Shown piece by piece: positions 203-27,061 of a DNA stretch of 36,779 nt. The position numbers and the translations under genes are program-made. Below the pieces are notes generated by a model that saw nothing but the letters and a program-made list of their open reading frames with translations, searched no databases and was not told the origin of the DNA. The stretch lies in UHGV virus genome UHGV-0182470. One strand, written 5' to 3'. The DNA comes from a virus. Position 1 is the first letter of the stretch. Each line of letters begins with the position of its first letter.

Positions 203-685
203 ATGGAAGAACTTCACTTTGTTTACATCAATGCAAATGGTCGTATCGGTGTTCACTCTATACAGAGCATCAGTTATAGCGAAAATCATATACAGGGCAT
301 TTGTAAGAACACCGATCGAATAAAAACCTTCCGAAAAGACCGCATTCTTAAACAGTACGATTCACCAGAACAAGCCATTCAGGAGTGCGCGTCATTCCTC
401 CCCGAAAACTACTCACATCTCACCAAGCAGTCTGGTCCGAAAAAAAATACATTCGATGTGTGTTTCACCGGATTTAAGAAAGCAGATAAAGAAAGATTGG
501 TTGATAAGGCGAATGAACAAGGATTAACGGTAAGAACCTCTGTAACCCAAAGCCTTCAGATGCTCTGTTGCGGTTACAATGCAGGCCCATCAAAAGTATC
601 GGCAGCCAGGATGAAAGGCACAATCATCATAGATGAGCCTGGCTTTATACATTTTCTTGAAACGGGTGAGATCCCAGATGAATAA
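203..685 (+). CDS. Cargo protein with C-terminal BRCT-like domain (N-terminal region ending in a TFRKDRI motif reminiscent of WYL domains)
   Basis: 160-aa ORF with AAGAGG RBS 6 nt upstream; C-terminal segment VCFTGF...GLTV...GYNAGPSKVSAARMKGTIIIDE resembles the BRCT domain at the C-terminus of NAD-dependent DNA ligase; sits between attL and ogr. Confidence 0.55.
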   Translation: MEELHFVYINANGRIGVHSIQSISYSENHIQGICKNTDRIKTFRKDRILKQYDSPEQAIQECASFLPENYSHLTKQSGPKKNTFDVCFTGFKKADKERLVDKANEQGLTVRTSVTQSLQMLCCGYNAGPSKVSAARMKGTIIIDEPGFIHFLETGEIPDE

Positions 686-998: not shown

Positions 999-2099
999 TT
1001 ATTCCATTTCAAGATCATCAATCTTCACTTCGAGTTCAATACTGGTTGTAAAACCGTTATCCGGGCTGACGGTATGTGTCAGAGTCGTAATGGTCCATTC
1101 CGCATCATCTATCGGCTGTTTAAAGCCACTGACTTTCACTGGCATTTCCGTGTAGAGATCTGCCCGACCTTCCGCCAGTTGTAGCGAGAATGACGCAACG
1201 CCGCGTTGCAGGCGTTCCCACTGCATTTTCGCTGCCCGTTCAGCGTTGCTTCGGTTGGCATAAGTGCGATTAAGTACCAGCACGTTTTCATCCGTACCCA
1301 CCAGGTAATCGCCCTGCTTCGCTTCTGGCTCTTTCTTCTGCTTCTTAGTTCTGCGCTTACGCTTCACCGTGGTGCTTTCTTTCTTCGCGGGTTCGCGGGT
1401 ATGCAACCAGCTGGCAATTACGCCCGTGTAGGCTCCGCGATCTGCCAGGGTAAAGCGGTGACTGTCGCCGTCCTTGCGTGTGATAGTGATCACCGGCAGT
1501 GGTTTACCAGTGGCGCTTTTGCCCTGTCCCTGCCGGATGAATAACAGATTGCCATTTTTCACCGACGCGATGGCACCGTACTGGCGCGCCAGCCGCATCA
1601 GAAAACTGCCGTCACTCTCATTAGTCTGGTCTATATGCTCCACGGGCTTATCCGACAGGTCTTTACCCAGTGCCATCTTCAGCTTGTGACGCGCGGCTAT
1701 TTCCTTCACCACTTCCCCGACAGTGGTCTTGTGCCACGATTTTTCACGGCGGGTATTCAGCGTTTCCCTAAAATCAGCACTTCGCGCCCGGATAGTCAGG
1801 CGATCCGGTGCGCCAGTGTGTTCAATCTCGTCCACCGTGAATGCCCCTTTCGGGAAAAGCGGCTGCCCCTTCCAGCCCAGCGCCAGCGTGATGACCGCAC
1901 CACGGCGCGGCAGCACGATTTTTCCGTCGGCGTCGTCCAGTTCCAGATCAAGCTGGTCTGCTTCAAAGCCCCGATTGTCCGTCAGCGTCAGACTCATCAG
2001 GCGGTTATCCAGCACAGTGGTGATATCCTTTCCCTCAATACTGATGCTGAATGCGGGAGTTTTGTTGCCTTTGTTAAGCAGTTCAGAGCTGAAATTCAC
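999..2099 (-). CDS. D: Tail protein D (late control gene D family)
   Basis: 366-aa ORF; position (end of tail operon next to ogr) and sequence character match P2 gpD; overlaps stop of U by 4 nt. Confidence 0.85.
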   Translation of the reverse strand: MNFSSELLNKGNKTPAFSISIEGKDITTVLDNRLMSLTLTDNRGFEADQLDLELDDADGKIVLPRRGAVITLALGWKGQPLFPKGAFTVDEIEHTGAPDRLTIRARSADFRETLNTRREKSWHKTTVGEVVKEIAARHKLKMALGKDLSDKPVEHIDQTNESDGSFLMRLARQYGAIASVKNGNLLFIRQGQGKSATGKPLPVITITRKDGDSHRFTLADRGAYTGVIASWLHTREPAKKESTTVKRKRRTKKQKKEPEAKQGDYLVGTDENVLVLNRTYANRSNAERAAKMQWERLQRGVASFSLQLAEGRADLYTEMPVKVSGFKQPIDDAEWTITTLTHTVSPDNGFTTSIELEVKIDDLEME

Positions 2100-2581
2100 G
2101 ACAGCAGCCCTCCCACCGTTTTACTGATATCGCTTAAGGCAGACGTTGCCGTATCCTGCAAATTATTCAGCTGCGCACTGAGATCACCGAACATATCGGA
2201 CAGGGATTCATCCACCCGTTTGAGCGACAGCGTGAACTCAATCCGGCGCGGCATACCATCGCGGAAAAACTCCGTTTTAGTCTGATTCAGTCCCTCAATC
2301 ACATACATGCCGTAAATCGTGCCGCTGCCTTCAATCAGGGGCCATGCTTTTCCCTGTTCTGCCATCTGCTCCAGAGCCAGCAACGACAGCCTGCCGCCCG
2401 TTATCTCCGGCATAAGAACACCAGAAAGCGTCAGCATGTCGTTGTCCGGTCCCAGAAACTGCATGGACGGACGTCGGTTGACCCGGCTGTTTGCCGCATG
2501 TCGCCAGCTGCGTTGATACTGCAGTTCCTGATACGGCACAGTGCGCAGCATAAACACGTACAATCCCAGCACCATCATCAT
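2096..2581 (-). CDS. U: Tail protein U
   Basis: 161-aa ORF between tape measure and D, translationally coupled (ATGA overlaps) as in P2 T-U-D. Confidence 0.85.
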   Translation of the reverse strand: MMMVLGLYVFMLRTVPYQELQYQRSWRHAANSRVNRRPSMQFLGPDNDMLTLSGVLMPEITGGRLSLLALEQMAEQGKAWPLIEGSGTIYGMYVIEGLNQTKTEFFRDGMPRRIEFTLSLKRVDESLSDMFGDLSAQLNNLQDTATSALSDISKTVGGLLS

Positions 2582-5500
2582 GCGTCGTATCCCCCCTGAT
2601 CGCTGTAGTTACTCCTGGCTTTTGCCTTCAGCCTGCGTTCACGTTCATCAAGCTGGCGGGCCACCTCCCGCGCAATATCCTGCGCACTTTGTCCTGGCTG
2701 CGTCTGAATGATGATCTGCGTCGGTGCCTCAATCCGTTGAACGGGCGGCACAGTGGCTGCACGACTCACCATCGCTTCGCCGCCTTTCGAGGGAAGTGCC
2801 AAAGGATGCAACGGTGGAAGCTCTGCAGGCGCGGCAGCAACGCCCATCATTCCGGCAACAACGGCAGCCAGTGAAGCTGTATTTCTCCGGCTGGTCACAT
2901 TTGCCGGGCCGTTAACAATTTCCGGCCCGTTTTCACCGACGATGCCAAACTGCCCGCGCGGGATATAGCCGCCGCTGTCATACATCCCCGCAAAGCCATA
3001 TCCCCATGACGGAAAACCACCCGATGGCATCATCACTTTACCGTCTGCATTCACCGTCGCAGGTTGCTGACGCGTCACGCTTTCCGGCAGTTTCGCCTTT
3101 GCGGCCTCTTTACTGACAATGCCGAGTTTTTCCAGCAACCAGGATACGCCGGATTTCAGGGAGTCCAGCGGATGCATGACCATATTCAGCCCTTCCGCCA
3201 GCGCCTCCCCGAATCGTCGCCCCATTGCCGCTGCGCTCTGCAGTTCGGCAGAAGTCGACTTAACGGGCGTCAGCAAATCAGTAAACCAGCCCCACAGCGC
3301 CTGCACTTTGTCGCCAATCCACTGGAACACAGGCTTAAGCGGTTCGAATGCGGCACTGATGGGTCCTGCCGCCGCTTTGAATCCTTCCACCACGCCACCG
3401 AGAAATGCGGTGATGGGTTGCCAGTATTTCCAGACAACCAGCGCCACGCCCGCCAGTGCAGTAACCACAAGACCTATCGGACTGAGCAGAGCACCTAACA
3501 GACCAGATACGGCATACAGGGCAACGCGCAGCATCGCCAGTGGACCAGATGCCAGTACTCGCAGCACCGTGCCTGCGGCGGCCAGTCCACCGCGCAGTAC
3601 CGCCAGAGGATTCATAAACATCACAGCAGCAGCACGTAAACCGGATAATCCAGACCGGAACAGTGCAACCGGCGCACCTGCTACAGTTTTCAGGACATTC
3701 CCCGTCAGTGATGCCGTGCGACGCAAAGACGACAACGGAGCAGTAAGTAAACCCGCTGCGTTGCCCGATGAAGCAAGCCCGCGTCGCAGCAGTGCCAGTG
3801 GAGCGCCAGCTAACCAGGACAACGCGCTGCTGGTTCGTGTTACTGCTGCGGTAACGGAAGGTAACGTTTTGATACCCAGCACAGAGAATCCCAGACGGAT
3901 GACTGCCAGCGGCCCCAGCACTGCAGCCAGCGCCACCGCTAAGGTGCCGAGGCCTACGGTAACCGCAGCCACAACAGCCGCTACTTTCATCAGTGTGCCT
4001 GTCAGTTCCGGGTTAGCTTCCACCCAGCGGCGCAACGCCCCCGTGATGCTTTTCACCGTGTACAGAATATCCATCAGCGGCTGGCGCAGCGTTTCGCCCA
4101 GGCTGCTGAAGGTGTTCTGCGCTCCGGTTTTGACCAGCAACCACTGAGCAGAAAGTGAGTCTTTGTTGATGTCGGATTCTTTCTGCATGGAACCGAGCGC
4201 ATCATTGCCCGCTGTCAGTTTTAGCTGGCGCTGCAGTTCCGGAAGGTTGTTTGCCAGTTTCGCCGCGTCATCACCAAACTCTTTACCAAACAACATGGTC
4301 ATGGCAGACAGACGCTTGTCCTGCGGCAGTGCGTTCACCTTCTCCAGCACACGCTGGATAGTTCCCATCGCATCCTTCGTCATCTGCTTTTCAATCACTT
4401 CAGGATTGAGTTTCAGCAGATTCATCCCTTCAAAGAAACTCTTGCTTTGCATGGTGGCAATGGACAATTCACGCACCATCGCGTTTGCTGCACTGGCTGC
4501 AACCTCCGGTGCAGCGCCCAGTGTCAGGAAGGTGGAACCCAGCGCCGCCGCTTTACGATAATCCAGACGGTCAGCCACACCGCCCAGACGCTGCATCACA
4601 TCAATGATGTCCGCCCCTTTCGACATGGCGTTATCATCCAGAAAGTTCAGCGCATCACCGAGCTGTTCAATATTGCGGGTTGGTATTTTGTAGAGCTGGG
4701 CGATTTTCCCCAGACTTTCTGACAGTTCATCCGCTGGCAGCTCAAAGGCTGTTGCCGCTTTTGCTGCCGTACTGGCGAAGGCCAGCAGGTCACGTTTCTG
4801 GTCCTCCCAGCTGTCGTCAGGGTTTGCCACATTCATGCGCGCACCACCTTCAACCAGTGCGGCGAAGTCCACAGCACCGTTTTCCATTGGCAGCTGTTCA
4901 CTGGCAGCTTTGATGGCATCCTGCATTTCGTAAAAACGCGCAGTGCGGTTGCCATTATCGTCACGCAGACCATTGACCTGCTTTGCCACACCTTTCATGG
5001 CATCTTCCATGCTGGTATAGCTTTTTACCGCCGCCATCACTGGCGCGCCCATTGCCAGCCCTGCAGCCGTGGTGGTGGCTCCGGCTCCTGCGATGCGATC
5101 GCGCACTTCAAGCCGTCTTGAGTATTGTTCTCTGGCAACGTTCATCCGTGCCTGTTGTTCACCCAGACGTTTAAGTGCTTTTTGCTGGCCCTCCAGTGCC
5201 TGACGAGTTTCTTCGGCATTTTTCTTAAGTTCTCGCTGGGCACTACTGAGTTGTCTGGTATCAATCCCTGATTCTTTAAGTGCCTGACGTTGTCTCTGGA
5301 CCGCCCCCAACAAGCCGTTATAGGTCTGCTGAAGTTCCTGTACTCGTGTTTTGGCCTGACTGAATAACTTTGCTTGCGCGGCGGTTGGCCTGTTAGTGGC
5401 AGCAAATTGTGTGGCGAGTTTTGCCGCCTCTTCGCGGGCTGTGTTCAGGTTGTTGGCTGTTATGGCTAGTTGCGAGCGCGTCTTGCGAAATTCATCAATT

Positions 5501-5655
5501 CTGCCAGCCTGCTTATTCAGTTCTTTGAGGCTGTTTCGGGTATTCTGAATTGCGCCAGCCAGCTCTTTCGAACTGGCCTGTGCAGCACGGAATGGGCGGG
5601 TGAGTTTGTCAACCGCATTAAGAATGACCTGCAGGCGCAGGTTATTATCACTCAT
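2578..5655 (-). CDS. T: Tail tape measure protein
   Basis: 1025-aa ORF, coiled-coil N-terminus, Ala/Gly-rich hydrophobic repeats (LxxxAGxP...) in the middle; position after E/E'. Confidence 0.9.
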   Translation of the reverse strand: MSDNNLRLQVILNAVDKLTRPFRAAQASSKELAGAIQNTRNSLKELNKQAGRIDEFRKTRSQLAITANNLNTAREEAAKLATQFAATNRPTAAQAKLFSQAKTRVQELQQTYNGLLGAVQRQRQALKESGIDTRQLSSAQRELKKNAEETRQALEGQQKALKRLGEQQARMNVAREQYSRRLEVRDRIAGAGATTTAAGLAMGAPVMAAVKSYTSMEDAMKGVAKQVNGLRDDNGNRTARFYEMQDAIKAASEQLPMENGAVDFAALVEGGARMNVANPDDSWEDQKRDLLAFASTAAKAATAFELPADELSESLGKIAQLYKIPTRNIEQLGDALNFLDDNAMSKGADIIDVMQRLGGVADRLDYRKAAALGSTFLTLGAAPEVAASAANAMVRELSIATMQSKSFFEGMNLLKLNPEVIEKQMTKDAMGTIQRVLEKVNALPQDKRLSAMTMLFGKEFGDDAAKLANNLPELQRQLKLTAGNDALGSMQKESDINKDSLSAQWLLVKTGAQNTFSSLGETLRQPLMDILYTVKSITGALRRWVEANPELTGTLMKVAAVVAAVTVGLGTLAVALAAVLGPLAVIRLGFSVLGIKTLPSVTAAVTRTSSALSWLAGAPLALLRRGLASSGNAAGLLTAPLSSLRRTASLTGNVLKTVAGAPVALFRSGLSGLRAAAVMFMNPLAVLRGGLAAAGTVLRVLASGPLAMLRVALYAVSGLLGALLSPIGLVVTALAGVALVVWKYWQPITAFLGGVVEGFKAAAGPISAAFEPLKPVFQWIGDKVQALWGWFTDLLTPVKSTSAELQSAAAMGRRFGEALAEGLNMVMHPLDSLKSGVSWLLEKLGIVSKEAAKAKLPESVTRQQPATVNADGKVMMPSGGFPSWGYGFAGMYDSGGYIPRGQFGIVGENGPEIVNGPANVTSRRNTASLAAVVAGMMGVAAAPAELPPLHPLALPSKGGEAMVSRAATVPPVQRIEAPTQIIIQTQPGQSAQDIAREVARQLDERERRLKAKARSNYSDQGGYDA

Positions 5656-6084
5656 CGTTGGCCCCGCTTCTCTGAATCGCTTTATACCGCCATTCCAGCA
5701 CTTCGGTCAGCGGCATAACGTCAGTAACGGATGGCGGCCAGTGAAAGATGGTGGCGATATCAGCCACCAGATCGTCAACCGTCAGGCTGTCGGTAAACCG
5801 GCAAGCACCGACTTCTTCAACAAAAAAGTGACAACCTCAACCGACATGGCAGTGAGATCTGCCGGGTCCATCTCTGCAATTTCCTGTGCAGTCAGTGCCG
5901 GACTGGAGATGCGGGGGATCACGGTCATCATCGCGTTCACATCCATATCCATAATGGCCTGCAGGCGTGTACCGCGCAGCGCACCGGACTGCGGTTTACG
6001 CAGCACAATTTCGGTGATTTCTGTTTTACCGCGCTTGATGGGGGTATCCAGTTGAATAGTCTTTTCAGTCTGCTTATCGCTCAT
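5649..6084 (-). CDS. E+E': Tail assembly chaperone E+E' (-1 programmed frameshift product)
   Basis: Minus-strand reading ...GTC ACT TTT TTG TTG AAG... (heptamer at 5821-5827 on + coordinates); the -1 frame stays open for ~58 codons (FFVEEVGACRFTDSL...WRYKAIQRSGANDE) and stops at TGA overlapping the T start codon. Confidence 0.8.
5782..6084 (-). CDS. E: Tail assembly chaperone E
   Basis: 100-aa ORF upstream of tape measure; contains slippery heptamer T_TTT_TTG near its 3' end. Confidence 0.85.
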   Translation of the reverse strand: MSDKQTEKTIQLDTPIKRGKTEITEIVLRKPQSGALRGTRLQAIMDMDVNAMMTVIPRISSPALTAQEIAEMDPADLTAMSVEVVTFLLKKSVLAGLPTA

Positions 6085-6663: not shown

Positions 6664-7836
6664 TTACGCGCTGACCTGGCTGGAGAAATTCACCAGGTAC
6701 TGATCGGTGATGCGCTGACGCAGCATCAGGTTTTCAAGTGGCGGCACTGGCGTGTAGTCGTAGTCGATGGTGAGTTTTCCGGCTTTCAGCGTGTCTTTGT
6801 CGTTCACCGACTCATCCAGCCAGCAATCACCACCAATGAGATAGCCCTGACTGACCAGGCTGCGCATTTTGGCGCGGATACCCTCGATAATGTCGCGGGC
6901 CAGCGACGGATTCAGCGGTTTATCCACCGCCCACATGTGCGCTTCTGCCATCGTGTCCGTCAGCACCTGCGCCGTGCGGGTGTAGTTTTCGAAGGCAAAG
7001 AGCGGGTCATCACTCAGGCAGCGGGAACCCCAGAAGCGAAAACCGTCTTTGCGGATAAGGGTGGTGACGTCGTTCTGGTTCAGCAGTCCCGCATCGGTTG
7101 CCGGGTCCTGCAGATCCCAGAACACATCAGCAGAAATTCCGGTGACACCGTTAACGCCCACGTTGGACAGGCTTTTGTGCCATCCGGTCTGCTCGTCAAT
7201 TTTGGCGCGCAGACCAAGCGCACGGGCGGTGGCATAAGCCGTTGCTTCGGCATTCAGCACCGTGTCCCAGCCAGTAAAGTCGGGCCAGATCAGCATTCCT
7301 TCACGCTGACTGAAGTTTTCACGGTAAGTGATTGCTTCCTGCACCGTCTTGCAACCATACGCTGACAGGTAAGCAAATCCACGCAGGCTTTGCGCCACGC
7401 TCAGCAACTCAGTAGCTACCGCCTTCGTGTCGTGACCTGGCACGCCGAGAATGCGCGGTTTAACGCCGAGCTGTGACTGGGCAGATAACAGGGCTTTCAT
7501 GCCTGTTTTTTTACCTTCAGCGGTCACTGCTCCGATGATATTGGTCGTGGTTTCTTCTTCCGTTTCACCCTGCGGCACACGCACAACAACGGTCACGGGT
7601 TTTGCCTGGTCAGCGATGGCATCCAGCGAACGAGCCAGCGTGCCTGACTCACCCGCTTTACCGCTGGCAGTCAGCACATCAGTGATCAGCACGGGTTTAT
7701 TAAGAGGAAACATTTTTGCATCGGCATCATCGCCCGTGCAGACCATACCCACGATGGCGGTGCTCACCGTGGTAATGGATCGGGTGCCTTCGTTGACTTC
7801 AACAACGCGCACCCCGTGGTGGTAATCCTGAGCCAT
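6664..7836 (-). CDS. FI: Tail sheath protein FI
   Basis: 390-aa ORF starting [14 protein letters not shown]..., typical contractile sheath; first gene of F operon. Confidence 0.9.
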
Positions 7837-7978: not shown

Positions 7979-8551
7979 TCAGGGGGATTCATTACTCTTA
8001 TTTGCCGGAAATTTTCTATAAATTGTGGAAACACCCACATCAAAAATCAGTGCAATACGCTGTCTTGATTCTCCGGCCTCGAGTAAGCGTCCAATCTGTG
8101 CCCACTGTTCGGTAGTCAACTTAGGACGGCGTCCACCTACTCTGCCTTTGGCGCGAGCTGCAGCAAGCCCCGCCCTGGTACGTTCAACTATCAGTTCGCG
8201 TTCCATTTCAGCCAGGGCACCCATGACATGAAAAAAGAAACGGCCCATTGGGGTACTGGTATCAATACTGTCAGTCAGGCTTCGGAAATTCACACCTCGC
8301 TGGCGCAACTCTTCTATCAACGTAACAAGATGCCGCATACTGCGCCCCAACCTGTCCAGCTTCCAGACAACCAGCGTGTCTCCTGCCGATAGTGTCCTGA
8401 GCAGTTTTTTCAGCCCCGGTCTGTTGGACTTAGTGCCACTGATTTTGTCCTCAAAAATCCGCTCACATCCCGCGCAGTTCAGTGCATTACGTTGCAAATC
8501 GGTGTTCTGGTCATTTGTTGACACGCGTACATAGCCAATAAGCATGATCAA
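7979..8551 (-). CDS. Serine recombinase, DNA invertase (Hin/Gin/Cin/Pin family)
   Basis: 190-aa ORF MIMLIGYVRVSTNDQNTDLQ...GDTLVVWKLDRLGRS...C-terminal HTH; catalytic Ser motif YVRVST; lies 50 bp from an invertase crossover-type site. Confidence 0.9.
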   Translation of the reverse strand: MIMLIGYVRVSTNDQNTDLQRNALNCAGCERIFEDKISGTKSNRPGLKKLLRTLSAGDTLVVWKLDRLGRSMRHLVTLIEELRQRGVNFRSLTDSIDTSTPMGRFFFHVMGALAEMERELIVERTRAGLAAARAKGRVGGRRPKLTTEQWAQIGRLLEAGESRQRIALIFDVGVSTIYRKFPANKSNESP

Positions 8552-9140: not shown

Positions 9141-9375
9141 CCCCCGGCGCGGTGCTGGTATCTGCTTCCATCACCGCGTCGATATTACCAACATCATATT
9201 CAGTCATTTCCGGTTCCGGTGGTGCTATAAACTCTCCGTCAGAATAGAACCAACCGACGCCTGCATCTATATGATCAACATTTATAATTTCGCAATTAGA
9301 GAATAAATCACCCTCTCCATCCCAGATAATAATATTTTTCACCACGCCATGTTCAATCAGAGCAAAATTACTCAT
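9109..9375 (-). CDS. Small tail-fibre assembly/chaperone-like protein (expressed orientation)
   Basis: 88-aa ORF starting at the stop of H (ATGA overlap), inside the invertible segment; assignment by position. Confidence 0.5.
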   Translation of the reverse strand: MSNFALIEHGVVKNIIIWDGEGDLFSNCEIINVDHIDAGVGWFYSDGEFIAPPEPEMTEYDVGNIDAVMEADTSTAPGVIWPVPPEMV

Positions 9376-11117
9376 CAGGCATACTCCTCAACAATAACTA
9401 TTCCCGGGGCACCGTCACCTCCCGATTGAGCCTCACTTCCGGCAGGTGCGCAGGCTCCGCCTCCGCCAGCACCAAAGCCCTCAGCTTTACCACCACCACG
9501 TCCTCTGAATGATGAAGAACTTGCACCACCTATACCGCCTGAACCTAATGGTGTATCCCCCCCGGTACCACCTGCTACAGCTTTAACAGAGATAACCATT
9601 GCTCCTGGTGTTTTTGCACTACAGCGAAATGCTCTTAGTACAGTGCCGGACGATGTCGGACTGGCACCCCATGAAATACCCTGAATATATGATGTGTTTG
9701 CAGATGCTCCCCCCGCGCCACCGCCTGTACCACCAGGTGCAGTTATCATGGAACCGAAATAAGTTGTGCCACCTTCACTACCTGAATTTCTTCCGGCTCC
9801 CCCCCCTTTACCTGCAGCACCGATAATAACGTTGACTTCGAAATCATTATCAACCTCGAAAAATGCTTCAATAAATGCGCCGCTCAATCCAGCTCCGGCT
9901 GTTGCCTGCTGATTTTCTGTTGTTTCAGGAACCCCACCGCCGCCGCCGCCACCACCAGAGGCAATGACCCTTATCTTTTTTGTCCCTGGTGTTGGGATAT
10001 ATTTTCCAGAGCTTTTAAAAATATTCGTGTTTAACAAACGACCAGAGAATCTGGCTTCTCCCAAACCAAGGTATGCGAGAAGACCAGTTACATCCTTTCC
10101 ACTCAAATTAGTCAACGTATTGTCCAGCGGTTGTTTACCTGCCAGCGCATTAAGCATTGTCGTGGCAAAGTTCGGATCATTCCCCAGTGCCGCCGCCAGT
10201 TCGTTCAGTGTATCCAGTGCCGCAGGTGCAGAACCCACCATTGCTGCAATCGCTGATTTCACAAAAGCCGTAGTGGCAATCTGTGTATTGTTGACCGACT
10301 GCGCCGCCGTGGGGGCTGTTGGCGTTCCGGTGAGTACCGGACTCGACAGCGGCGCTTTCAGTGCCAGCGCATTGTTAATGGTGGTACTGAATTTCGGATC
10401 ATTGTTAATGGCTACGGCTATTTCTTTCAGCGTGTCCAGCGTGGCTGGCGCACCATTAATAAGAGCCGTCAGTGCCGCCTGAACAAATGCTGTGGTCGCA
10501 AGCTGCGTGGTATTATTCCCCGCCGCTGGCGTTGGCGCTTTGGGGGTTCCGGTAAACGTCGGACTTTCTTTGGGTGCATACTGTGAATGCGGGTCCGGTG
10601 CGGCAAGATGTTTTGCCATCAGGTCATCCACGTACACCTTCAACTCCAGTGCTTTGTCATCCACATACTTGCGGGTTGCCAGCACTACAGCAGGGTCGAT
10701 TTTCAGGGTGATATTGTCCGTGCTGCTGGTTATCAGCGCCATGCGCACGGTCTGGGTGCGCCCGCTGCCTTCAGCCAGTTGCGGCTTATAGCTTTCCGGG
10801 CAGTTGCCCACGGCAATCAATGCCCCGGACTCATCAAACAGGCCCACTTCACGGATCCACCAACCGCCCTCGTTTTCAGGGATCACCTGTTCGGCAATAA
10901 TCTGGCTGCTGTTCTGCGGGTCGATATAGAGCATATTCAGCGCAGCCCGGCGTTTCTCATTTACCAGTGCAGTCTGCTTTGCGTCCGGCGTTGGCAATCT
11001 TCCGCCGCCATCGCCGACCGCCATATGGGTAATTTTTAACGGCACACCGAGCGCGGCGGCGCTGGCAAGTTTCGCCGCGCCAATATCCGTCAGCAGGGTA
11101 TAAAATTTTGTGCTCAT
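9375..11117 (-). CDS. H: Tail fibre protein H (constant N-terminal part 10082-11117; variable C-terminal part inside invertible segment)
   Basis: 580-aa ORF with repeated QLATTAFV / QIATTAFV motifs and Gly-rich C-terminal region; follows baseplate gene I. Confidence 0.85.
   Translation of the reverse strand: MSTKFYTLLTDIGAAKLASAAALGVPLKITHMAVGDGGGRLPTPDAKQTALVNEKRRAALNMLYIDPQNSSQIIAEQVIPENEGGWWIREVGLFDESGALIAVGNCPESYKPQLAEGSGRTQTVRMALITSSTDNITLKIDPAVVLATRKYVDDKALELKVYVDDLMAKHLAAPDPHSQYAPKESPTFTGTPKAPTPAAGNNTTQLATTAFVQAALTALINGAPATLDTLKEIAVAINNDPKFSTTINNALALKAPLSSPVLTGTPTAPTAAQSVNNTQIATTAFVKSAIAAMVGSAPAALDTLNELAAALGNDPNFATTMLNALAGKQPLDNTLTNLSGKDVTGLLAYLGLGEARFSGRLLNTNIFKSSGKYIPTPGTKKIRVIASGGGGGGGGVPETTENQQATAGAGLSGAFIEAFFEVDNDFEVNVIIGAAGKGGGAGRNSGSEGGTTYFGSMITAPGGTGGGAGGASANTSYIQGISWGASPTSSGTVLRAFRCSAKTPGAMVISVKAVAGGTGGDTPLGSGGIGGASSSSFRGRGGGKAEGFGAGGGGACAPAGSEAQSGGDGAPGIVIVEEYA
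10056..10081. repeat. Invertase crossover site, right (inside tail-fibre gene H)
   Basis: TTCTCCCAAACCAAGGTATGCGAGAA, inverted relative to the 8601 site; encodes the GLGEA peptide shared by H and the silent alternative fibre segment. Confidence 0.75.
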
Positions 11118-12659: not shown

Positions 12660-12966
12660 CGTTATTACGCCGCCCGATCAGCTCCACCACCATTGAACCG
12701 TCAAAATTGCTATTGATGGTGATGGAATCCAGCGTCAGCCGTGGCTCCCAGCGACTCAGCGCCACATACACTGCCGACATGACCTGCAGGCGTAATGCCG
12801 GATTTTGTGGCTGGTCTATCAGTGTCGACAGCAGGGAACCATATTCACGACGGGCAATGCGGCTACCCTGCGGTGTCAGTAGAATGTCCCGCACCGACTG
12901 ACGCAGATGGTCAATATCAGTAATGGCTTTACCGCTGGTATTGTTCATCCCGCTATAAAGCGTCAT
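12607..12966 (-). CDS. W: Baseplate protein W (gp25-like)
   Basis: 119-aa ORF, position and size match P2 gpW. Confidence 0.85.
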   Translation of the reverse strand: MTLYSGMNNTSGKAITDIDHLRQSVRDILLTPQGSRIARREYGSLLSTLIDQPQNPALRLQVMSAVYVALSRWEPRLTLDSITINSNFDGSMVVELIGRRNNGVPVSLSVSTGAENGSD

Positions 12967-13541
12967 ACCGGGCCTCCGGTTGTGTCGCCGCCTTTCAGGA
13001 CGCCAGTATGCTGATGTGCATCAACCACAATTCCGTTAGAACTCATTGCACCGCCGCCCTGGGTAACACCACCATTGATCACTACTTCGCTGTTAATGCG
13101 TGTGCGGTCAGCCTCCAGTACAAACTCACTGGTTTTCATGGTGATATTGTCGGCGGTCTCAATGACCATTGATTTGATGCCCCTGACATACCAGCGCCCG
13201 GTGGCGGGTTCGTATTCAAACCAGCCGCCGTCAGGATGCTCTGTCACGCAGGCATCCGCCGACGTCGACGGTGGTGCGAACTGATTCGAATAGATGGCGG
13301 GCAGCGCAAACGCGGTTTCAAGATTTCCGCCCAGACTCAGCAGCACCACCTGCTCACCTTCCGATGGTTTCCACCATGTGCGGGCATTCCCGGCACGCAG
13401 CGTCAGCCAGCTGATCCAGTTGGTTTCGAGGTCGCCAGTTTTCACCCGACACAGCCAGTTTGCCCTGTCCACTTCGGTGACTACACCTGTGCGGATCAGG
13501 TTGGTGATAAGGCGCATGATTTCGGTTAATTGTGCGTTCAT
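12963..13541 (-). CDS. V: Baseplate spike/hub protein V
   Basis: 192-aa ORF MNAQLTEIMRLITNLIRTGVV... resembling P2 gpV. Confidence 0.85.
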   Translation of the reverse strand: MNAQLTEIMRLITNLIRTGVVTEVDRANWLCRVKTGDLETNWISWLTLRAGNARTWWKPSEGEQVVLLSLGGNLETAFALPAIYSNQFAPPSTSADACVTEHPDGGWFEYEPATGRWYVRGIKSMVIETADNITMKTSEFVLEADRTRINSEVVINGGVTQGGGAMSSNGIVVDAHQHTGVLKGGDTTGGPV

Positions 13542-13761: not shown

Positions 13762-13793
13762 TTGACACAAAAGATGTTTATTGACAATATATA
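13762..13793 (+). promoter_or_regulatory. Putative sigma70 promoter of the DUF262 cargo gene
   Basis: TTGACA at 13762-13767 followed ~17-18 bp later by AT-rich -10-like hexamer (CAATAT/AATATA); ATG at 13820 with AAGGAG RBS. Confidence 0.35.
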
Positions 13794-13819
13794 AATTCAA
13801 TCTAACAAGGAGAAAAATT

Positions 13820-15595
13820 ATGCCAAATGAAAATCTTGATATTGACTCAAGGACTACCGAGCAATTATACGAATGGTATTTGCAAGGAAATTTGATAGTC
13901 AATAGACGTTATCAAAGGAAACTTGTATGGTCTCTAGAAGAAAAGACTTCTTTAATATCTTCTATGCTGCAACAATATCCTATTCCGTTATTATTATTTG
14001 TTACCATCAATGAACAAAGAGAAATATTGGATGGAATGCAAAGATTAGAAGCAATTATGAGCTTCATCGAACAGAGATTTTCATTAGATGGACAATATTT
14101 TGATTTGGACTCTATAGCTTTAACAAAACAACTTAAAGATAATGGAACTTTAATTCAGAAAGAACCAATCCTTTCCCGTGATTCTTCAGCAATTATTGCA
14201 CGTTATCGATTTGCAATATCAGAATATAGCTCCACAAATGAAAATATTGACGAAGTATTCAGACGAATAAACTCAAACGGGAAGATTTTATCCAAACAAG
14301 AATTACGTAGTGCAGGAACAGTTAGTAACTTCTCTGAACTGGTCAGATCGATATCAACATCGATCAGAGGTGATACTAGCCATTCTGACATTATGAATCT
14401 CCAGCAAATGCACAAAATTTCAATCAGTAACGATAGATTGGAGTACGGGGTAAATATCGATAACCACTTTTATATAAAACATCATATTTTAACAAGACGA
14501 AGTATTCGTGATTCTGATGACGAGGAATTGATAGCCAATATCCTTGCATATATCAGTCTAGAAGAAAAACCCACATCTGGGTCAACTTCTCTCGACACAT
14601 TCTATGGTCAAGGAAACTCCTCTCATGCTCATGGTGTCAGACAGCAATTAGAGTCTTTCATTCAAACCAATAACGCTGCCACTATTAAGCAGAATTTCAT
14701 AGCTGTATATGAATTAATTACAAGCCTATATGACGGAAAAAATGATACTTTTAGAAGCCATATTTTAGGGGAGGATAATTCATCTCAAGAATGCCCTCGT
14801 TATTATCAAGCTGTGTTTTTGTCTATTTATGAACTTCTTTTCAACCAAAATATGCAATTAATTGATAAAGAAGGTTTATTCTCGCAATTAAAAAACACTG
14901 GCAATACCATAATTATGGTTACCGATGGTGGCCGCTGGGCTGCAAGCACTCGTGAAAAAAGTGTTAATGATCTTGTTGCATTAATAAGTCGCTACTTCCA
15001 ACCTGCTCCTCAAAAGTATGTGAATCATGCTTGGGTAACTGAAATTCGCAATCTATTAACAAATTCTAGAACTGAACAACCAAGTTATGATTTCAAACAG
15101 GGGTTCTTTAATTTATCAGGTAAAAATGAATTTGATGATGAATGTTTAAAAGGAATATTACAAACTTGCGTAGCAATAAATAATATTGGAAAAAGCGCAA
15201 AAGGCTATATTTTAGTTGGTATTGCCGAAAATAAATTAACCGCAGATAGAATTCAACATTTATATGGAGTAAATTCAATTGAGTTCAATGGGTTCTATAT
15301 AAACGGAATTGATCATGAAGCAATGTTAGTCTCTGGTAGCATTGATGGTTACTTTATGTTAATAAAACAAAAAATACAAGGATACAATTTCACTGAAACT
15401 CTAAAACAGCAGATACTTAAGAATATTGAGTTTTGCTCTTACAATGGCTTACACATACTCAAGATAACTATTCAGAGCACAGGTCAAATTTGCGACTTTG
15501 AGAATATGTTTTATATCAGACAAGGCTCATCGACTGATCCAGTTACGGATACACAAAAAATCTCAGCCCTATTTAACTCTTACATGAACAGCTAA
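13820..15595 (+). CDS. DUF262 (ParB/GmrS-like N-terminal domain) protein, candidate defence cargo gene
   Basis: 591 aa from ATG 13820 (AAGGAG RBS; ORF track start 13781 is upstream in frame); N-terminal region ...RRYQRKLVWS...ILDGMQRLEAI matches the DGQQR signature region of DUF262; visibly AT-rich relative to flanking phage genes; opposite strand to S and V. Confidence 0.7.
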   Translation: MPNENLDIDSRTTEQLYEWYLQGNLIVNRRYQRKLVWSLEEKTSLISSMLQQYPIPLLLFVTINEQREILDGMQRLEAIMSFIEQRFSLDGQYFDLDSIALTKQLKDNGTLIQKEPILSRDSSAIIARYRFAISEYSSTNENIDEVFRRINSNGKILSKQELRSAGTVSNFSELVRSISTSIRGDTSHSDIMNLQQMHKISISNDRLEYGVNIDNHFYIKHHILTRRSIRDSDDEELIANILAYISLEEKPTSGSTSLDTFYGQGNSSHAHGVRQQLESFIQTNNAATIKQNFIAVYELITSLYDGKNDTFRSHILGEDNSSQECPRYYQAVFLSIYELLFNQNMQLIDKEGLFSQLKNTGNTIIMVTDGGRWAASTREKSVNDLVALISRYFQPAPQKYVNHAWVTEIRNLLTNSRTEQPSYDFKQGFFNLSGKNEFDDECLKGILQTCVAINNIGKSAKGYILVGIAENKLTADRIQHLYGVNSIEFNGFYINGIDHEAMLVSGSIDGYFMLIKQKIQGYNFTETLKQQILKNIEFCSYNGLHILKITIQSTGQICDFENMFYIRQGSSTDPVTDTQKISALFNSYMNS

Positions 15596-15638: not shown

Positions 15639-15672
15639 AAGACGAGAGGGTTATTTAAACCTCCTCGTCTTT
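15639..15672. terminator. Bidirectional rho-independent terminator between DUF262 gene and S
   Basis: AAGACGAGAGGG ... CCTCCTCGTCTT hairpin flanked by A-tract upstream and TTATTTTG downstream. Confidence 0.6.
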
Positions 15673-16117
15673 ATTTTGATAGCTCCTCCTTTATGCTCAT
15701 AATAATATTTTCTTCTGTTTTATAAGATAAGCCCAATAAAGTACGTTGCGGATATTTCGCGATTAAACCTTTTTTATTTACGCGATCACGCAGACCGTAA
15801 TGGTGAACACGGGCAATGCGCTGTACCTTACCTTCAAACTGTACGCTGGCAGAATCGGCGCTGGCGGCAGTTTTCAGGTATTTTGTGGTGCGCAGCTTTG
15901 CAAACATCTGACGTTTGATACGCCCCTTTTTACTGCGTGCTGTTACCCGTCGCGGTTCATAACTACTGCCATCTGGATTGCGCTGCATCCTGATGTTCTT
16001 CTGTTGTGTCCTGCGCAGTTCCTGCGCCAGTTGGCGCATCATGCGGCTTCTTGCGGCTGGTTCCAGATTCGCCAGCAAGGCACTCAGCCAGTCGTCAACT
16101 TTCTGCAGTTCAGCCAC
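15671..16117 (-). CDS. S: Tail completion protein S
   Basis: 148-aa ORF, position after R; P2 gpS-like. Confidence 0.85.
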   Translation of the reverse strand: MAELQKVDDWLSALLANLEPAARSRMMRQLAQELRRTQQKNIRMQRNPDGSSYEPRRVTARSKKGRIKRQMFAKLRTTKYLKTAASADSASVQFEGKVQRIARVHHYGLRDRVNKKGLIAKYPQRTLLGLSYKTEENIIMSIKEELSK

Positions 16118-21244: not shown

Positions 21245-23011
21245 ATGAACACCACACTGACACCCGCAGATCTCGATCCCCGTCGGCAGGCCATGCTGCT
21301 GTACTTTCAGGGATACCGCGTAGCCCGCATTGCTGAAATGCTGGGCGAGAAAGTTGCAACCGTTCACAGCTGGAAAAAACGCGACAAGTGGGGTGACTAT
21401 GGGCCGCTGGATCAGATGCAGCTCACCACCGCCGCACGCTACTGCCAGCTCATTATGAAGGAGCACAAAGAAGGGAAAGATTTCAAAGAGATTGACCTGC
21501 TGGCGCGCCAGTCTGAGCGCCACGCGCGGATCGGCAAGTTTAACAATGGCGGCAACGAAGCCGACTTAAACCCTAACGTCGCCAACCGCAACAAAGGCCC
21601 GCGCCGTCAGCCGGAAAAGAATGTCTTCACCGATGAACAGATTGAGAAGCTGGAAGAAATCTTCCATTCCTCCATGTTCAACTACCAGCGCCACTGGTGG
21701 GAAGCCGGAAAAACCAACCGCATCCGCAACCTGCTGAAGTCACGCCAGATCGGCGCAACCTTTTACTTTGCCCGTGAAGCCCTGATTGACGCCCTGCTTA
21801 CCGGGCGTAACCAGATTTTCCTTTCCGCCAGTAAGGCACAGGCCCACGTCTTTAAGCAGTACATCATCGACTTCGCCAAAGAAGTCGAAGTGGAGCTGAA
21901 AGGCGATCCGATGGTGCTTCCTAACGGGGCCACGCTTTACTTCCTAGGCACCAATGCCCGCACGGCCCAGAGTTACCACGGCAACCTGTATCTGGATGAA
22001 TATTTCTGGATCCCGAAATTCCAGGAGCTGCGCAAAGTGGCTTCCGGTATGGCTATTCACAAGAAATGGCGACAGACCTATTTTTCCACGCCATCCAGCC
22101 TGACCCACAGTGCTTATCCGTTCTGGTCCGGTGCGCTGTTCAACCGTGGGCGCAACAAAGCCGACAAGGTGGACATCGACCTGTCCCACAGCAATCTGGC
22201 TCCCGGTCTGCTGTGTGCAGACGGGCAATACCGCCAGATAGTCACCGTGGAAGATGCGGTGCGCGGCGGCTGTAACCTGTTCGACCTTGACCAGTTGCGC
22301 ATGGAATACAGCCCGGACGAATACCAGAACCTACTGATGTGTGAGTTCGTGGACGATCTCGCGTCCGTGTTCCCGCTCAGCGAGCTGCAGGCGTGCATGG
22401 TGGACAGCTGGGAAGTCTGGACCGACTTTCATGCACTGGCCCTGCGCCCGTTTGGCTGGCGCGAGGTGTGGATCGGTTATGACCCGGCAAAAGGTACGCA
22501 GAACGGCGACAGTGCCGGATGCGTAGTGGTGGCTCCGCCAGCCGTGCCTGGCGGTAAGTTCCGCATTCTTGAGCGTCACCAGTGGCGCGGGATGGACTTT
22601 CGCGCCCAGGCTGACGCCATCAAAAAACTGACCGAACAGTACAACGTGACATACATAGGTATCGACTCAACCGGCGTCGGTCACGGGGTTTACGAGAACG
22701 TGAAAGCGTTCTTTCCTGCCGTCCGGGAGTTCGTCTACAACCCCAATGTTAAAAACGCCCTGGTACTCAAGGCCTACGACATTATCAGCCACCGCCGTCT
22801 GGAGTTTGACGCCGGATACACCGACATAGCGCAGTCATTTATGGCAATCCGTCGCGCCACCACCGCCAGCGGCAACCGCCCGACCTATGAAGCCAGCCGC
22901 AGCGAAGAAGCCAGCCATGCTGATCTGGCCTGGGCAACGATGCATGCACTGTTTAACGAACCGCTGCAGGGCGAGTCCGCCAATACCAGCAATATTGTGG
23001 AGATTTTTTGA
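21245..23011 (+). CDS. P: Terminase large (ATPase) subunit P
   Basis: 588-aa ORF divergent from O; P2 gpP-like. Confidence 0.9.
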   Translation: MNTTLTPADLDPRRQAMLLYFQGYRVARIAEMLGEKVATVHSWKKRDKWGDYGPLDQMQLTTAARYCQLIMKEHKEGKDFKEIDLLARQSERHARIGKFNNGGNEADLNPNVANRNKGPRRQPEKNVFTDEQIEKLEEIFHSSMFNYQRHWWEAGKTNRIRNLLKSRQIGATFYFAREALIDALLTGRNQIFLSASKAQAHVFKQYIIDFAKEVEVELKGDPMVLPNGATLYFLGTNARTAQSYHGNLYLDEYFWIPKFQELRKVASGMAIHKKWRQTYFSTPSSLTHSAYPFWSGALFNRGRNKADKVDIDLSHSNLAPGLLCADGQYRQIVTVEDAVRGGCNLFDLDQLRMEYSPDEYQNLLMCEFVDDLASVFPLSELQACMVDSWEVWTDFHALALRPFGWREVWIGYDPAKGTQNGDSAGCVVVAPPAVPGGKFRILERHQWRGMDFRAQADAIKKLTEQYNVTYIGIDSTGVGHGVYENVKAFFPAVREFVYNPNVKNALVLKAYDIISHRRLEFDAGYTDIAQSFMAIRRATTASGNRPTYEASRSEEASHADLAWATMHALFNEPLQGESANTSNIVEIF

Positions 23012-24039
23012 TGGGAAAGAGTAAGAAAAACCGCGCTGCGGCGACGAAACAGCTCCAGCTTAAAAACCAGACTACAGCCGAAGCATTCAGCTTCGGCGAT
23101 CCCGTTCCTGTTCTGGACCGCCGAGAACTGCTGGACTATGTGGAATGCGTACAGATGGACCGTTGGTATGAGCCGCCCGTCAGCTTTGACGGACTGGCGC
23201 GCACCTTCCGCGCTGCCGTGCATCACAGTTCCCCGATTGCAGTAAAGTGCAACATTCTGACCAGTACCTATATCCCTCATCCGCTGCTCAGCCAGCAGGC
23301 TTTTTCGCGTTTTGTGCAGGACTATCTGGTATTTGGTAACGCCTACCTGGAGAAACGCACGAACCGATTCGGTGAAGTTATCGCTCTTGAGCCTGCGCTG
23401 GCAAAATACACCCGACGCGGATTAGACCTGGATACCTACTGGTTTGTGCAATACGGTATGACAACCCAGCCGTATCAGTTCACGAAAGGCAGCATTTTTC
23501 ATCTGATGGAACCGGATATTAATCAGGAGATCTACGGCCTGCCCGGTTATCTTTCTGCCATTCCGTCAGCCCTGCTCAACGAGTCCGCCACGCTGTTCCG
23601 CCGGAAGTATTACATTAACGGTAGTCATGCAGGCTTCATCATGTACATGACCGATGCCGCGCAGAACCAGGAGGATGTGAACAACCTCCGCAACGCGATG
23701 AAAAGTGCCAAAGGTCCGGGTAACTTCCGCAACCTGTTTATGTACTCGCCTAACGGCAAAAAAGACGGGCTTCAGATTATCCCGCTATCAGAAGTCGCAG
23801 CGAAGGATGAATTTCTTAACATCAAGAACGTGAGTCGGGATGACATGATGGCAGCGCATCGTGTGCCACCACAAATGATGGGGATAATGCCTAGCAATGT
23901 TGGGGGGTTTGGGGATGTGGAGAAGGCGGCAAATGTGTTTGTGCGAAATGAATTATTACCGTTGCAAAAAAGGATGCGTGAAGTAAATGACTGGTTAGAA
24001 CAAAAAATTTTGCGATTTGAGCCATATTCTTTGGGATGA
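23008..24039 (+). CDS. Q: Portal protein Q
   Basis: 343-aa ORF coupled to P (ATGA overlap). Confidence 0.9.
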   Translation: MMGKSKKNRAAATKQLQLKNQTTAEAFSFGDPVPVLDRRELLDYVECVQMDRWYEPPVSFDGLARTFRAAVHHSSPIAVKCNILTSTYIPHPLLSQQAFSRFVQDYLVFGNAYLEKRTNRFGEVIALEPALAKYTRRGLDLDTYWFVQYGMTTQPYQFTKGSIFHLMEPDINQEIYGLPGYLSAIPSALLNESATLFRRKYYINGSHAGFIMYMTDAAQNQEDVNNLRNAMKSAKGPGNFRNLFMYSPNGKKDGLQIIPLSEVAAKDEFLNIKNVSRDDMMAAHRVPPQMMGIMPSNVGGFGDVEKAANVFVRNELLPLQKRMREVNDWLEQKILRFEPYSLG

Positions 24040-24096: not shown

Positions 24097-24557
24097 GTGG
24101 GAAAAGTTCATGGTACAGCAAGTATGGTTTTTTTTAAGGCAATTGAGAAAGACGATCTTAGATACTGGGGAAATGATAGTTATCCCGATGACTCATCAGT
24201 TTTCTATCGCTATGACAGTTTTGTAGCGAATCACAAAAATGTAAAAGACGGTGATATTATTATTATTACCAACAGAGAAAATATTTTAGGTATATCTGTT
24301 ATTGAAAAATTAGAAACACAGAGCATTAATAAGAAGCGTAACAAATGTATTAACCTAGACTGCAAAGCAAAAAAATTCTTCAAAGGAAAACTATAAAATC
24401 AGAGTGGCGTTGTGATAATGGCCATGAATTTGATGAACCCAGAGTGGTTTTTGAGCCAGCTAAAGAATTTATAGCATACTGCGGCAACCAGTACCGTAAA
24501 TTATCCAATATTACAATGTCACAACTTATAGATGAAACTCCACGCTACAATGGGTAA
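24097..24557 (+). pseudogene. Zinc-ribbon-containing ORF split by a frameshift in an A7 tract (24097-24396 in frame 0, continuing to 24557 in frame +2)
   Basis: Frame-0 ORF ends ...KCINLDCKAKKFFKGKL; the same region in frame +2 reads ...KKILQRKTIKSEWRCDNGHEFDEP...YCGNQY... One extra A in the A7 run at ~24370-24376 would join them into one ~153-aa protein with a Cys/His zinc-ribbon-like pattern. Confidence 0.45.
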
Positions 24558-25070
24558 ATGTCCATCCAAGAAGTTAACTATCAATGGGCTGTTGCTTTGC
24601 TTACCGCCCAACATACTATTATTCTGGAGCTCAACGCCAGCGAAGCTGATAAAGACACCCCCACTTTAATGGGTGAAGATCAACGGCAAATTGTAGAACG
24701 GCAAATAAAACAACGAAGTGGGCAAAAAACATTTCGCGACCAGCTATTAAAATCAAATCCTACTTGTGCGGTTACGGGCTGTAAGCTTGTTGATATTCTT
24801 GATGCTGCTCACATTAATGTATATCGAAACGATAGTCACAATCATATTAGCAATGGATTATTGCTCAGAAGTGACATTCATACTTTATATGACCTAAATC
24901 TTTGTGCTATAAACCCGATAACAAAAACCATTCATTTTTCAGTGGAAGCCTTGGAAAATGGATATTCGAAATTCGAAGGTTTAAAAATAAATACCCAACA
25001 CAACATAGCAATAAAACCACTATTAACAAGATGGCAGTTATTAAAATCTCAAAACTCTATTGATATATAA
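24558..25070 (+). CDS. HNH endonuclease-domain protein
   Basis: 170 aa; motifs RSGQKTFRDQLL...CAVTGC...LDAAHI...NGLLLRSDIHTLYD fit the HNH (restriction-type) signature; ATG abuts the TAA of the upstream ORF (TAAATG); AT-rich. Confidence 0.7.
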   Translation: MSIQEVNYQWAVALLTAQHTIILELNASEADKDTPTLMGEDQRQIVERQIKQRSGQKTFRDQLLKSNPTCAVTGCKLVDILDAAHINVYRNDSHNHISNGLLLRSDIHTLYDLNLCAINPITKTIHFSVEALENGYSKFEGLKINTQHNIAIKPLLTRWQLLKSQNSIDI

Positions 25071-25126: not shown

Positions 25127-26155
25127 TTAGAGCACTAGGGGATCAGTGACCCATGCTTTATTATGGTTTTCTCGATAACAATCATAAATTAATAAATCCG
25201 TTCTTGTATCCGGTGGAAGTTCAATTTCAGGAATGTAATAACTTGCTGGATTGCTATTATCTAATGAAATTGAAAAGTTTTGATTAACGATCGTTGATAG
25301 AGACGTATTGGCTTCCAATAAGCTAAACGGGCCATATTTTACACAGTACATTACAACACAAGCAGCAACTGCATCCATTACATTTTCTAAAGTGGAAAAG
25401 TGGAATGCTCCTGATCTATCATGTTTAGTTTTATTATATGCATTATACCATGACAAAGATGTTGTAGGGGTACTTGCATTCCACCCATCAAAAGGTTTGA
25501 AATGCCTTAATCCGTCATAATTCAAATATTGAATTTTATATTCAGACAAATAACACTTATCTAATAATTTCACATAATCATTTGTGGAGTATCGACCATT
25601 TGAACGAGATAAATTCGAATTACCAATGATTGACACCCATTGATTTTCAACCTCAGTACAAGCAAGAATTAATAGCTCTCTACATTTATGACTGTAAGAA
25701 ATCAAACCATGGGCACTTGGTTCTACATATAGAAAAATATCATCGAGTTTTTCTATCAAAACTCTTAGAGCTTGCTCTGTTGCTCTTTTTTCAAACTCAT
25801 CGATACCTAATGCTGTTTCTGTATCATTGACATAATATAAGGATGGCCGCCACACTCCCCTAGTTACATGTCCAATTTCATTATCTAAAGGAGATATGTT
25901 CTGAGCCCCAAATACTCTCCGAACCCAATCATTGAGAGTTCCACTTCGTTGCTCAATAACAGTTAACCCAACTGATATTACATTAAATCCCACGTCACGC
26001 CCATACAGATGCACAAAATGACTTGTTGTTTCATAAGCGTAACCGAATTTGTGCTTTTGATGTACTGTTGTTTCAAAATTAGGAATGCGTGTATGAGTGT
26101 TTTCGTACCAGATTCCGTTCATCATCACCTCTAATGAGAGTCGATTATATTTCAA
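25127..26155 (-). CDS. Hypothetical 342-aa AT-rich cargo protein
   Basis: Long uninterrupted ORF on the minus strand in an AT-rich island between Q and the putative cos site; no confident family assignment (contains an RSGAFH, i.e. R-x4-H, motif). Confidence 0.6.
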   Translation of the reverse strand: MKYNRLSLEVMMNGIWYENTHTRIPNFETTVHQKHKFGYAYETTSHFVHLYGRDVGFNVISVGLTVIEQRSGTLNDWVRRVFGAQNISPLDNEIGHVTRGVWRPSLYYVNDTETALGIDEFEKRATEQALRVLIEKLDDIFLYVEPSAHGLISYSHKCRELLILACTEVENQWVSIIGNSNLSRSNGRYSTNDYVKLLDKCYLSEYKIQYLNYDGLRHFKPFDGWNASTPTTSLSWYNAYNKTKHDRSGAFHFSTLENVMDAVAACVVMYCVKYGPFSLLEANTSLSTIVNQNFSISLDNSNPASYYIPEIELPPDTRTDLLIYDCYRENHNKAWVTDPLVL

Positions 26156-27057: not shown

Positions 27058-27061
27058 TAAT

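Follow-up and report, generated by a model that had tools for sequence, protein, structure and literature searches.

Gene E and a predicted programmed -1 frameshift to E+E' in the tail operon of a Fels-2-like prophage

The window considered here is the whole of UHGV virus genome UHGV-0182470, a stretch of 36,779 nucleotides (nt), and is a Fels-2-like (Felsduovirus, Peduoviridae) prophage. Comparison of its tail gene E with related loci makes it very probable that this gene gives rise to the E and E+E' pair of tail assembly chaperones of P2-like (Fels-2-type, Peduoviridae) prophages, the longer protein being made by programmed -1 ribosomal frameshifting. An earlier reading of the window, made from the letters only (the sequence-only reading), had proposed a tail chaperone of this kind, and the proposal is borne out by colinearity with P2, by domain matches to the two frames, by the gene order, by a conserved slip site and by selection on the -1 frame. 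All E and E' features lie on the minus strand, coordinates being positions in the window; protein lengths are given in amino acids (aa).

5782..6084, minus strand: gene E, 0-frame product; ATG start at 6084, stop at 5784..5782, 100 aa, about 10.9 kDa; a tail assembly chaperone by its Pfam match
5821..5827, minus strand: slippery heptamer T_TTT_TTG in codons ACT TTT TTG; predicted site of the -1 shift
5648..5824, minus strand: E' reading frame, -1 relative to E; 58 sense codons from TTT 5824..5822, stop TGA 5650..5648
5648..6084, minus strand: E+E' coding span; predicted 145-aa fusion, about 16.1 kDa
5782..5821, minus strand: dual-coding overlap from the heptamer to the E stop; frame 0 encodes the C-terminal tail of E, frame -1 the start of E'

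Gene E, its slip site and the E' frame

Around the slip site the minus strand reads GTT GAG GTT GTC ACT TTT TTG TTG AAG AAG. The first T of the heptamer is the third base of codon 86, which places it in the X_XXY_YYZ phase; thus the slippery T_TTT_TTG of the sequence-only reading is indeed seen in the correct phase at 5827..5821. TTTTTTG is the only in-phase X_XXY_YYZ heptamer of gene E, and it falls within the 55 nt (5836..5782) from which E' can be entered by a shift. Upstream of these the -1 frame is closed by a stop at 5839..5837; it opens at 5836, which is 9 nt upstream of the heptamer. The predicted length of this frame was also correct, as 58 open codons were counted from TTT 5824..5822 to TGA 5650..5648, that is, 57 after the heptamer.

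The predicted fusion consists of residues 1-87 encoded in frame 0, residue 88, and residues 89-145 encoded in frame -1. Residue 88 should be Leu if UUG is decoded before the slip, and Phe otherwise. The predicted junction peptide is ISSPALTAQEIAEMDPADLTAMSVEVVTF[L/F]VEEVGACR, with a computed mass of 3994.5 Da with Leu and 4028.5 Da with Phe. Such a fusion had been foreseen, but its length had been put at about 142 aa, which is the length of the P2 protein, instead of 145 aa. The description of its 3' end had to be corrected in two respects. The terminating TGA had been said to overlap the start codon of the tape measure gene T, whereas it lies 2 nt past this ATG (5655..5653) and covers parts of T codons 2 and 3 (ATG AGT GAT); the TGA contained in the ATGA at the start of T is in a different frame from the E+E' stop. 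The end of the feature, given as 5649, is 5648. The open reading frames (ORFs) of E+E' and T share an 8-nt overlap, the ATG of T being located 8 nt inside the E+E' frame.

The proposed course of events is as follows. Most ribosomes would read gene E to its stop at 5784..5782 and release the 100-aa protein E. A minority would pause while the P site is occupied by tRNA-Phe on UUU 5826..5824 and the A site by tRNA-Leu on UUG 5823..5821; both transfer RNAs (tRNAs) would move back one base onto UUU UUU, and reading in the -1 frame would resume at GUU 5821..5819 and continue for 57 more codons to UGA 5650..5648. The product would be the 145-aa E+E' with an N-terminal E domain and a C-terminal GpE (PF06528) domain. 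By analogy with P2 E/E+E' and lambda G/GT, E and E+E' would be present in a fixed ratio and would act during tail assembly on T, which is encoded immediately downstream. From the same analogy we infer ribosomal shifting at this site, its frequency and the chaperone role of the products.

Both parts of the predicted fusion have recognizable homologs. Gene E matches the Pfam family PF10109 Phage_TAC_7 (tail assembly chaperone E/41/14) over residues 9-88 (E = 1e-18, 67.5 bits against a cut-off of 25) and PHROG phrog_103 (4e-44), and its RefSeq name is 'phage tail assembly protein'. The -1 extension matches PF06528, Phage P2 GpE, over the full profile (positions 1-37, 2.6e-18, 65.6 bits against a cut-off of 23), as well as phrog_1756 (1.8e-22) and phrog_6416 (3.3e-21). 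The comparison with P2 E+E' that had been suggested as a check was made with BLASTP: the two fusions align over 139 aa with 49% identity and without gaps, right through the slip site (E = 1e-51). Within the -1 frame the likeness to P2 runs ungapped from codon GTG 5767 back to the heptamer (VEEVGACRFTDSLTVDDL vs VAELGAVTFPKNLSVDDL). A tblastn search with the fusion as the query retrieved two pieces in two frames in 424 phage records. At the DNA level the similarity to P2 is too low for a blastn match; the NCBIfam scan of E and of the fusion returned no match, and the search for solved-structure relatives by sequence profile gave nothing meaningful, the best hit being an unrelated protease (E = 0.052).

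The E gene of P2 (NC_001895) has the same TTTTTTG close to its 3' end and in an identical phase, and the record annotates a -1 frameshift there. The -1 extension of 57 codons after the heptamer, the 8-nt overlap of E+E' with T and the gene order FI-FII-E-E'-T-U-D are shared as well. The two phages differ in the length of E (100 aa here, 91 aa in P2) and of the fusion (145 aa and 142 aa, respectively), in the distance of the E stop from the first base of the heptamer (43 nt here, 25 nt in P2) and in the stop codon, which is TGA here and TAA in P2. According to its record, the P2 product is a -1 frameshift fusion sharing the N-terminus of gpE, and both E and E+E' are called 'essential tail protein'. 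The mechanism was reportedly shown for P2 in 2002, and the primary paper on P2 genes E and E+E' is said to be that of Christie et al. 2002, J Bacteriol 184:6522. For P2, PMC3091744, which refers to Christie et al. (2002) and Xu et al. (2004), describes a -1 shift at TTTTTTG by which a single start yields both E (91 aa) and E+E' (142 aa).

The position of the genes points in the same direction. E and E' are flanked by FII (tail tube) and T (tape measure) in an operon FI-FII-E-T-U-D, and the site between tube and tape measure is the conserved place of frameshifts of the lambda G/GT type (PMC3091744, PMC5009743). The class of tail-chaperone frameshifts of long-tailed double-stranded DNA phages introduced by Xu et al. 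(2004), as it is defined in PMC3091744 and PMC5009743, comprises pairs of overlapping ORFs in the -1 relation that have a slippery site and are located between the genes for the major tail protein and the tape measure; all of these features are present in the window.

The closest relatives have the same architecture. Over the 541 nt surrounding the site, many E. coli records show 100% identity, phage Cartapus 99.4% and Fels-2 86%; of 5426 complete E. coli genomes, about 1000 contain this DNA. Fels-2 (STM2699 / STM2697.1), SEN8, SopEPhi and Cartapus belong to the same genus-level lineage; in the Fels-2 group the organization is identical, with a 100-aa E, the heptamer at the same codon and a 145-aa fusion. 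Fels-2 differs by point substitutions only (90% aa identity of the fusion), and its -1 frame is open further upstream, over 123 codons vs 62 here. The Fels-2 record notes that gpE+E' is formed by translational slippage.

Conservation of the site and other routes to E'

The viral contig collection contained 596 confirmed relatives, from which 80 loci were fetched, representing 74 distinct sequences. All 80 carry an in-phase heptamer inside the -1 ORF, TTTTTTG in 73 of them and TTTTTTA in seven, and the -1 frame is open from the heptamer in each of these loci, as it is in 17 of the 17 loci compared otherwise. The in-phase TTTTTTG is common to P2, Fels-2, SEN8, ENT90, KS14, FSL SP-004, Midge, Dobby, RSA1 and ST11-VIM1phi8.4. 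Variant heptamers occur in Smp131 (TTTTTTT) and in one Vibrio phage (TTTTTTC), while three distant relatives have the mixed-base heptamers GGGAAAG, CCCTTTC and AAATTTT, again in phase, inside the -1 ORF and near the end of E. Judging by their sequences, these three would fit tandem tRNA slippage.

The mixed-base sites are also relevant to the possibility that the change of frame takes place in transcription. In this case RNA polymerase would stutter on the T6 run and add one U to some of the messenger RNAs, normal translation of which would give E+E'. The site is a run of six T (seven in Smp131), and one added U leads to the -1 frame and to a product of the same length, so the sequence alone cannot separate the two routes. 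However, GGGAAAG, CCCTTTC and AAATTTT are poor templates for polymerase stuttering, and the codon phase proper to ribosomal slippage is kept in 80/80 loci, although polymerase slippage has no need of it. In addition, transcriptional slippage in bacteria usually requires longer runs. Taken with these points, the transcriptional route seems to us very unlikely, and slippage on the ribosome is the reading that we retain.

As to the extension itself, its pattern of variation points to selection on the encoded protein. Among 66 distinct relatives, gene positions 255-262 are invariant, and the variable sites downstream of the E stop are distributed as 17/8/32 over positions 1/2/3 of the -1-frame codons. 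The mean pairwise aa identity of the E'-only segment is 0.90 in the -1 frame vs 0.77 and 0.75 in the other two, both of which contain stops in all 66 sequences. Such a pattern shows that the -1 frame is under purifying selection. Close relatives have a DNA identity of 0.92 in the dual-coding overlap vs 0.85 in the E-only part. In distant relatives the length of the E tail varies (the stop lies 25-73 nt after the heptamer in those with TTTTTTN sites), and the -1 frame still aligns.

The conserved protein could in principle be encoded by a separate small gene, with no need for a frameshift: initiation at a GTG codon would give a free protein of the GpE family, as in the RefSeq/PGAP annotation.

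5648..5767, minus strand: stand-alone 39-aa ORF, 'GpE family phage tail protein', starting at GTG 5767; RefSeq/PGAP call

Such a stand-alone 'GpE family phage tail protein' is listed by RefSeq and by several phage records, and 11 of 14 diverse relatives have Met or Val as the residue equivalent to GTG 5767. At the same time, RSA1 has Ala there, MAR has Trp and the Mannheimia phage has Ile, so that the start codon is not conserved, and no Shine-Dalgarno match was found upstream of GTG 5767 (-2.5 kcal/mol vs -7.0 before the T start). The ungapped similarity of the -1 frame to P2 E+E' does not begin at this codon and extends upstream of it to the heptamer; the frame is open from the heptamer onwards in each of the 17 compared loci and of the 80 viral ones, and the P2 record describes a -1 frameshift fusion with the gpE N-terminus. 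Independent initiation at GTG 5767 is in our view highly improbable, and the 39-aa annotation is most likely a by-product of an unmodelled frameshift. For instance, in locus L001 (NZ_CP033250), where positions 1874..1993 correspond to 5767..5648 of the window, PGAP gives a separate 39-aa coding sequence with a GTG start (WP_000763311.1) and not a join. E' is a separate coding sequence in several phage records too, while a join is used in P2 and joined coding sequences are annotated in the records of KS14, Smp131 and Midge.

Several observations weigh against programmed frameshifting in gene E. RefSeq annotates E' as a gene of its own. No downstream RNA structure was found in the 108 nt from the heptamer, where the minimum free energy gave z = -1.21 relative to shuffled sequences; the alignment fold of 11 diverse relatives yielded -0.59 kcal/mol with 4 pairs only, far downstream, and no conserved helix near the site. 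The 12-codon overlap is kept slightly better in frame 0 (0.91) than in frame -1 (0.84) among close relatives; therefore the overlap itself does not single out the -1 frame. Finally, an in-phase heptamer followed by an open frame is not rare: window ORFs of 80 aa or more contain 62 in-phase XXXYYYZ heptamers, and 11 of these have at least 58 open -1 codons after them.

Most of these open -1 frames are due to a spurious ORF overlapping a real gene, and TTTTTTG as such occurs 22 times in the 36,779 nt. The bare combination of heptamer and open frame is thus weak evidence, the pattern being not rare in the window. For the same reason little can be made of the test by which an immediate stop after the heptamer in the -1 frame should have spoken against the shift: there is no such stop, and in-phase heptamers with open -1 frames of this length are common. 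It is the homology of the -1 frame, the synteny and the conservation that raise the site far above chance.

Stimulatory elements and kindred frameshifts

In P2-like phages no downstream structure has been found (PMC3091744). A local GTCGGT...ACCGAC hairpin present in the window was considered and rejected, since it is broken without compensation in several close relatives. Upstream of the heptamer one candidate element was noted.

5834..5838, minus strand: Shine-Dalgarno-like GAGGT, 6 nt upstream of the heptamer; candidate stimulator, unsupported by resampling

This GAGGT belongs to the strongest anti-Shine-Dalgarno match of gene E, as it does in seven of the 11 diverse relatives, and its GAG codon has an invariant third base in 75 distinct relatives. 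In other phages the corresponding motif is AAGGTGG (P2) or GAGGTGA (RSA1), and GAGGT(G) stands 6-7 nt before the heptamer. Resampling of synonymous codons with the protein sequence kept revealed no excess of GAGGT, either here (P = 0.26) or over 9 lineages (Fisher P = 0.21). The Glu/Lys-Val-Val protein sequence alone gives the motif about as often, and GAGGT is no more than a weak candidate for a selected stimulator. It is unlikely that GAGGT(G) pairs with 16S ribosomal RNA and acts as a stimulator similar to that of dnaX. If it did, it would help to explain how shifting of the P2 type reaches two to three times the lambda level without a downstream RNA structure.

The dnaX gene of E. coli (tau/gamma) is shifted by -1 at A AAA AAG, which has a Shine-Dalgarno-like element upstream of it and a hairpin downstream. 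The site of gene E is similar in its -1 tandem slippage on a homopolymeric heptamer of the X_XXX_XXZ type, in the enterobacterial host and in the GAGGT located upstream. The differences are that dnaX has a downstream hairpin, whereas the P2-type site here has none, that the GAGGT here can be accounted for by its Glu-Val codons, and that the shift here extends the protein while in dnaX it truncates it.

A closer functional parallel is provided by lambda G/GT (Levin et al., 1993; Xu, Hendrix and Duda, 2004). In both cases two proteins have one start, the -1 shift takes place near the end of the upstream ORF, and the gene lies between the major tail subunit and tape measure genes. The lambda heptamer is G GGA AAG as opposed to T TTT TTG here, and the phage in the window is contractile-tailed (myovirus-type), unlike lambda. 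The fusion of the lambda type is a minor product (PMC5009743, PMC3091744). In lambda both G and GT bind to the tape measure protein and are absent from the virion, and the major tail protein is recruited by the T part; the G:GT ratio of about 30:1 is of critical importance to the assembly of the tail, and the frameshift efficiency of the P2 type is 2- to 3-fold above that of lambda (PMC5009743). The earlier description of the E gene as the myovirus counterpart of lambda G/GT holds for function and position, but not as a statement about sequence: no homology to lambda gpG/gpGT appeared in the Pfam scan at E <= 0.01, which returned only PF10109 and PF06528.

The tail operon and the rest of the window

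The genes surrounding E and E' in the tail operon are the following.

6664..7836, minus strand: tail sheath gene FI, first gene of the F operon; PF04984, PF17482, PF22671
6139..6654, minus strand: tail tube gene FII, directly upstream of E; PF04985 (6e-60)
2578..5655, minus strand: tape measure gene T, 1025 aa; PF10145 (6e-17); length equal to that of the RefSeq homologue
2096..2581, minus strand: gene U; PF06995 (1.9e-44); length equal to that of the RefSeq homologue
999..2099, minus strand: gene D; PF05954 (2.5e-27); length equal to that of the RefSeq homologue; U and D end the FETUD-type operon

The sequence-only reading had taken the slip site as a sign that the tail operon is intact. As an argument for this the site is indirect, and better support comes from the ORF lengths of FI, FII, E, T, U and D, all of which equal those of their RefSeq counterparts. 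The same lengths should be considered when asking if the heptamer and the open frame could be an inert relic, inherited in a defective prophage and no longer used. Related copies do decay, as in NZ_CP019275, where the replication and invertase genes are frameshifted. In the window, on the contrary, all ORFs of the F operon are of full length; copies with 100% identity in the E/E' DNA are present in many genomes, the identity to Escherichia phage Cartapus is 99.4%, and the -1 frame is under purifying selection among the relatives. We therefore consider a relic extremely improbable, and a site in use for the synthesis of E+E' remains the preferred reading.

Several other features of the window are worth mentioning. 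Between the sheath and tail fibre genes there is an intact serine DNA invertase (7979..8551, minus strand; Resolvase and HTH_7 domains), the homolog of which is frameshifted in NZ_CP019275. Inverted repeats of 33 nt (8601-8633 and 10049-10081, 85% complementary) bracket about 1.4 kb, and the tail fibre gene 9375..11117 contains one of their arms. Such an arrangement points to inversion of the segment, by which the C-terminal glycine-rich domain (PF21722) of the fibre would be swapped. Between the late tail/baseplate genes 12963..13541 and 15671..16117, on the opposite strand, lies a 604-aa ORF (13781..15595, plus strand) which combines the N-terminal domain of a GmrSD restriction endonuclease (GmrSD_N, DUF262) with a Schlafen AlbA_2 domain; the related element in NZ_CP019275 has no gene at this place. 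The ORF looks like a defence-type cargo insertion.

The variable cargo region, which has the portal gene (23008..24039) on one side and replication gene A (28565..30979) on the other, contains a 187-aa ORF (26494..27057, plus strand) with a CdiA-CT RNase A toxin domain (PF18431, 6.6e-20), overlapped by the next ORF (26999..27721, plus strand) with a CdiI_2 immunity domain (PF18593, 2.1e-9). Judging by these domains, the two ORFs (26494..27721) look like a stand-alone toxin/immunity pair; PADLOC defence models gave no match to it. An ORF for an HNH_2 endonuclease (24558..25070, plus strand) is preceded by a 99-aa ORF (24097..24396), in which the -1 frame has 61 open codons from an in-phase AAAAAAA (24369) to a TAA directly in frame with the HNH start, and Cys/His motifs are found on both sides of the A-run. 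The arrangement 24097..25070 may represent a single gene that a frameshift and a stop have divided, or it may be another recoding site; it is present in identical form in only 12 of 5426 E. coli genomes.

Pfam gave no match for the ORFs 25127..26155 (minus strand), 27899..28231 (plus strand) and 203..685 (plus strand). The first two belong to the cargo region; ORF 203..685 is found past gene D, at the window's left end, and matches the PADLOC candidate family PDC-S48 weakly (1.8e-7). As for the integration site, ARAGORN detected no transfer-messenger RNA (tmRNA) or tRNA gene in the window, while the related copy in NZ_CP019275 adjoins ssrA; the copy in the window may therefore be integrated elsewhere, or the window may stop short of the attachment site.

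In general, the frameshift of gene E is a feature already known: the mechanism is recognised across long-tailed phages, and there is no new biology in it. The value of the present analysis is mostly in annotation, as E' is split off in databases as a free 39-aa gene, while the likely product is the 145-aa frameshift fusion. Besides, the intact slip site together with the full-length FI-FII-E-T-U-D genes suggests that the tail module of the prophage is still functional, which is useful for judging its inducibility.

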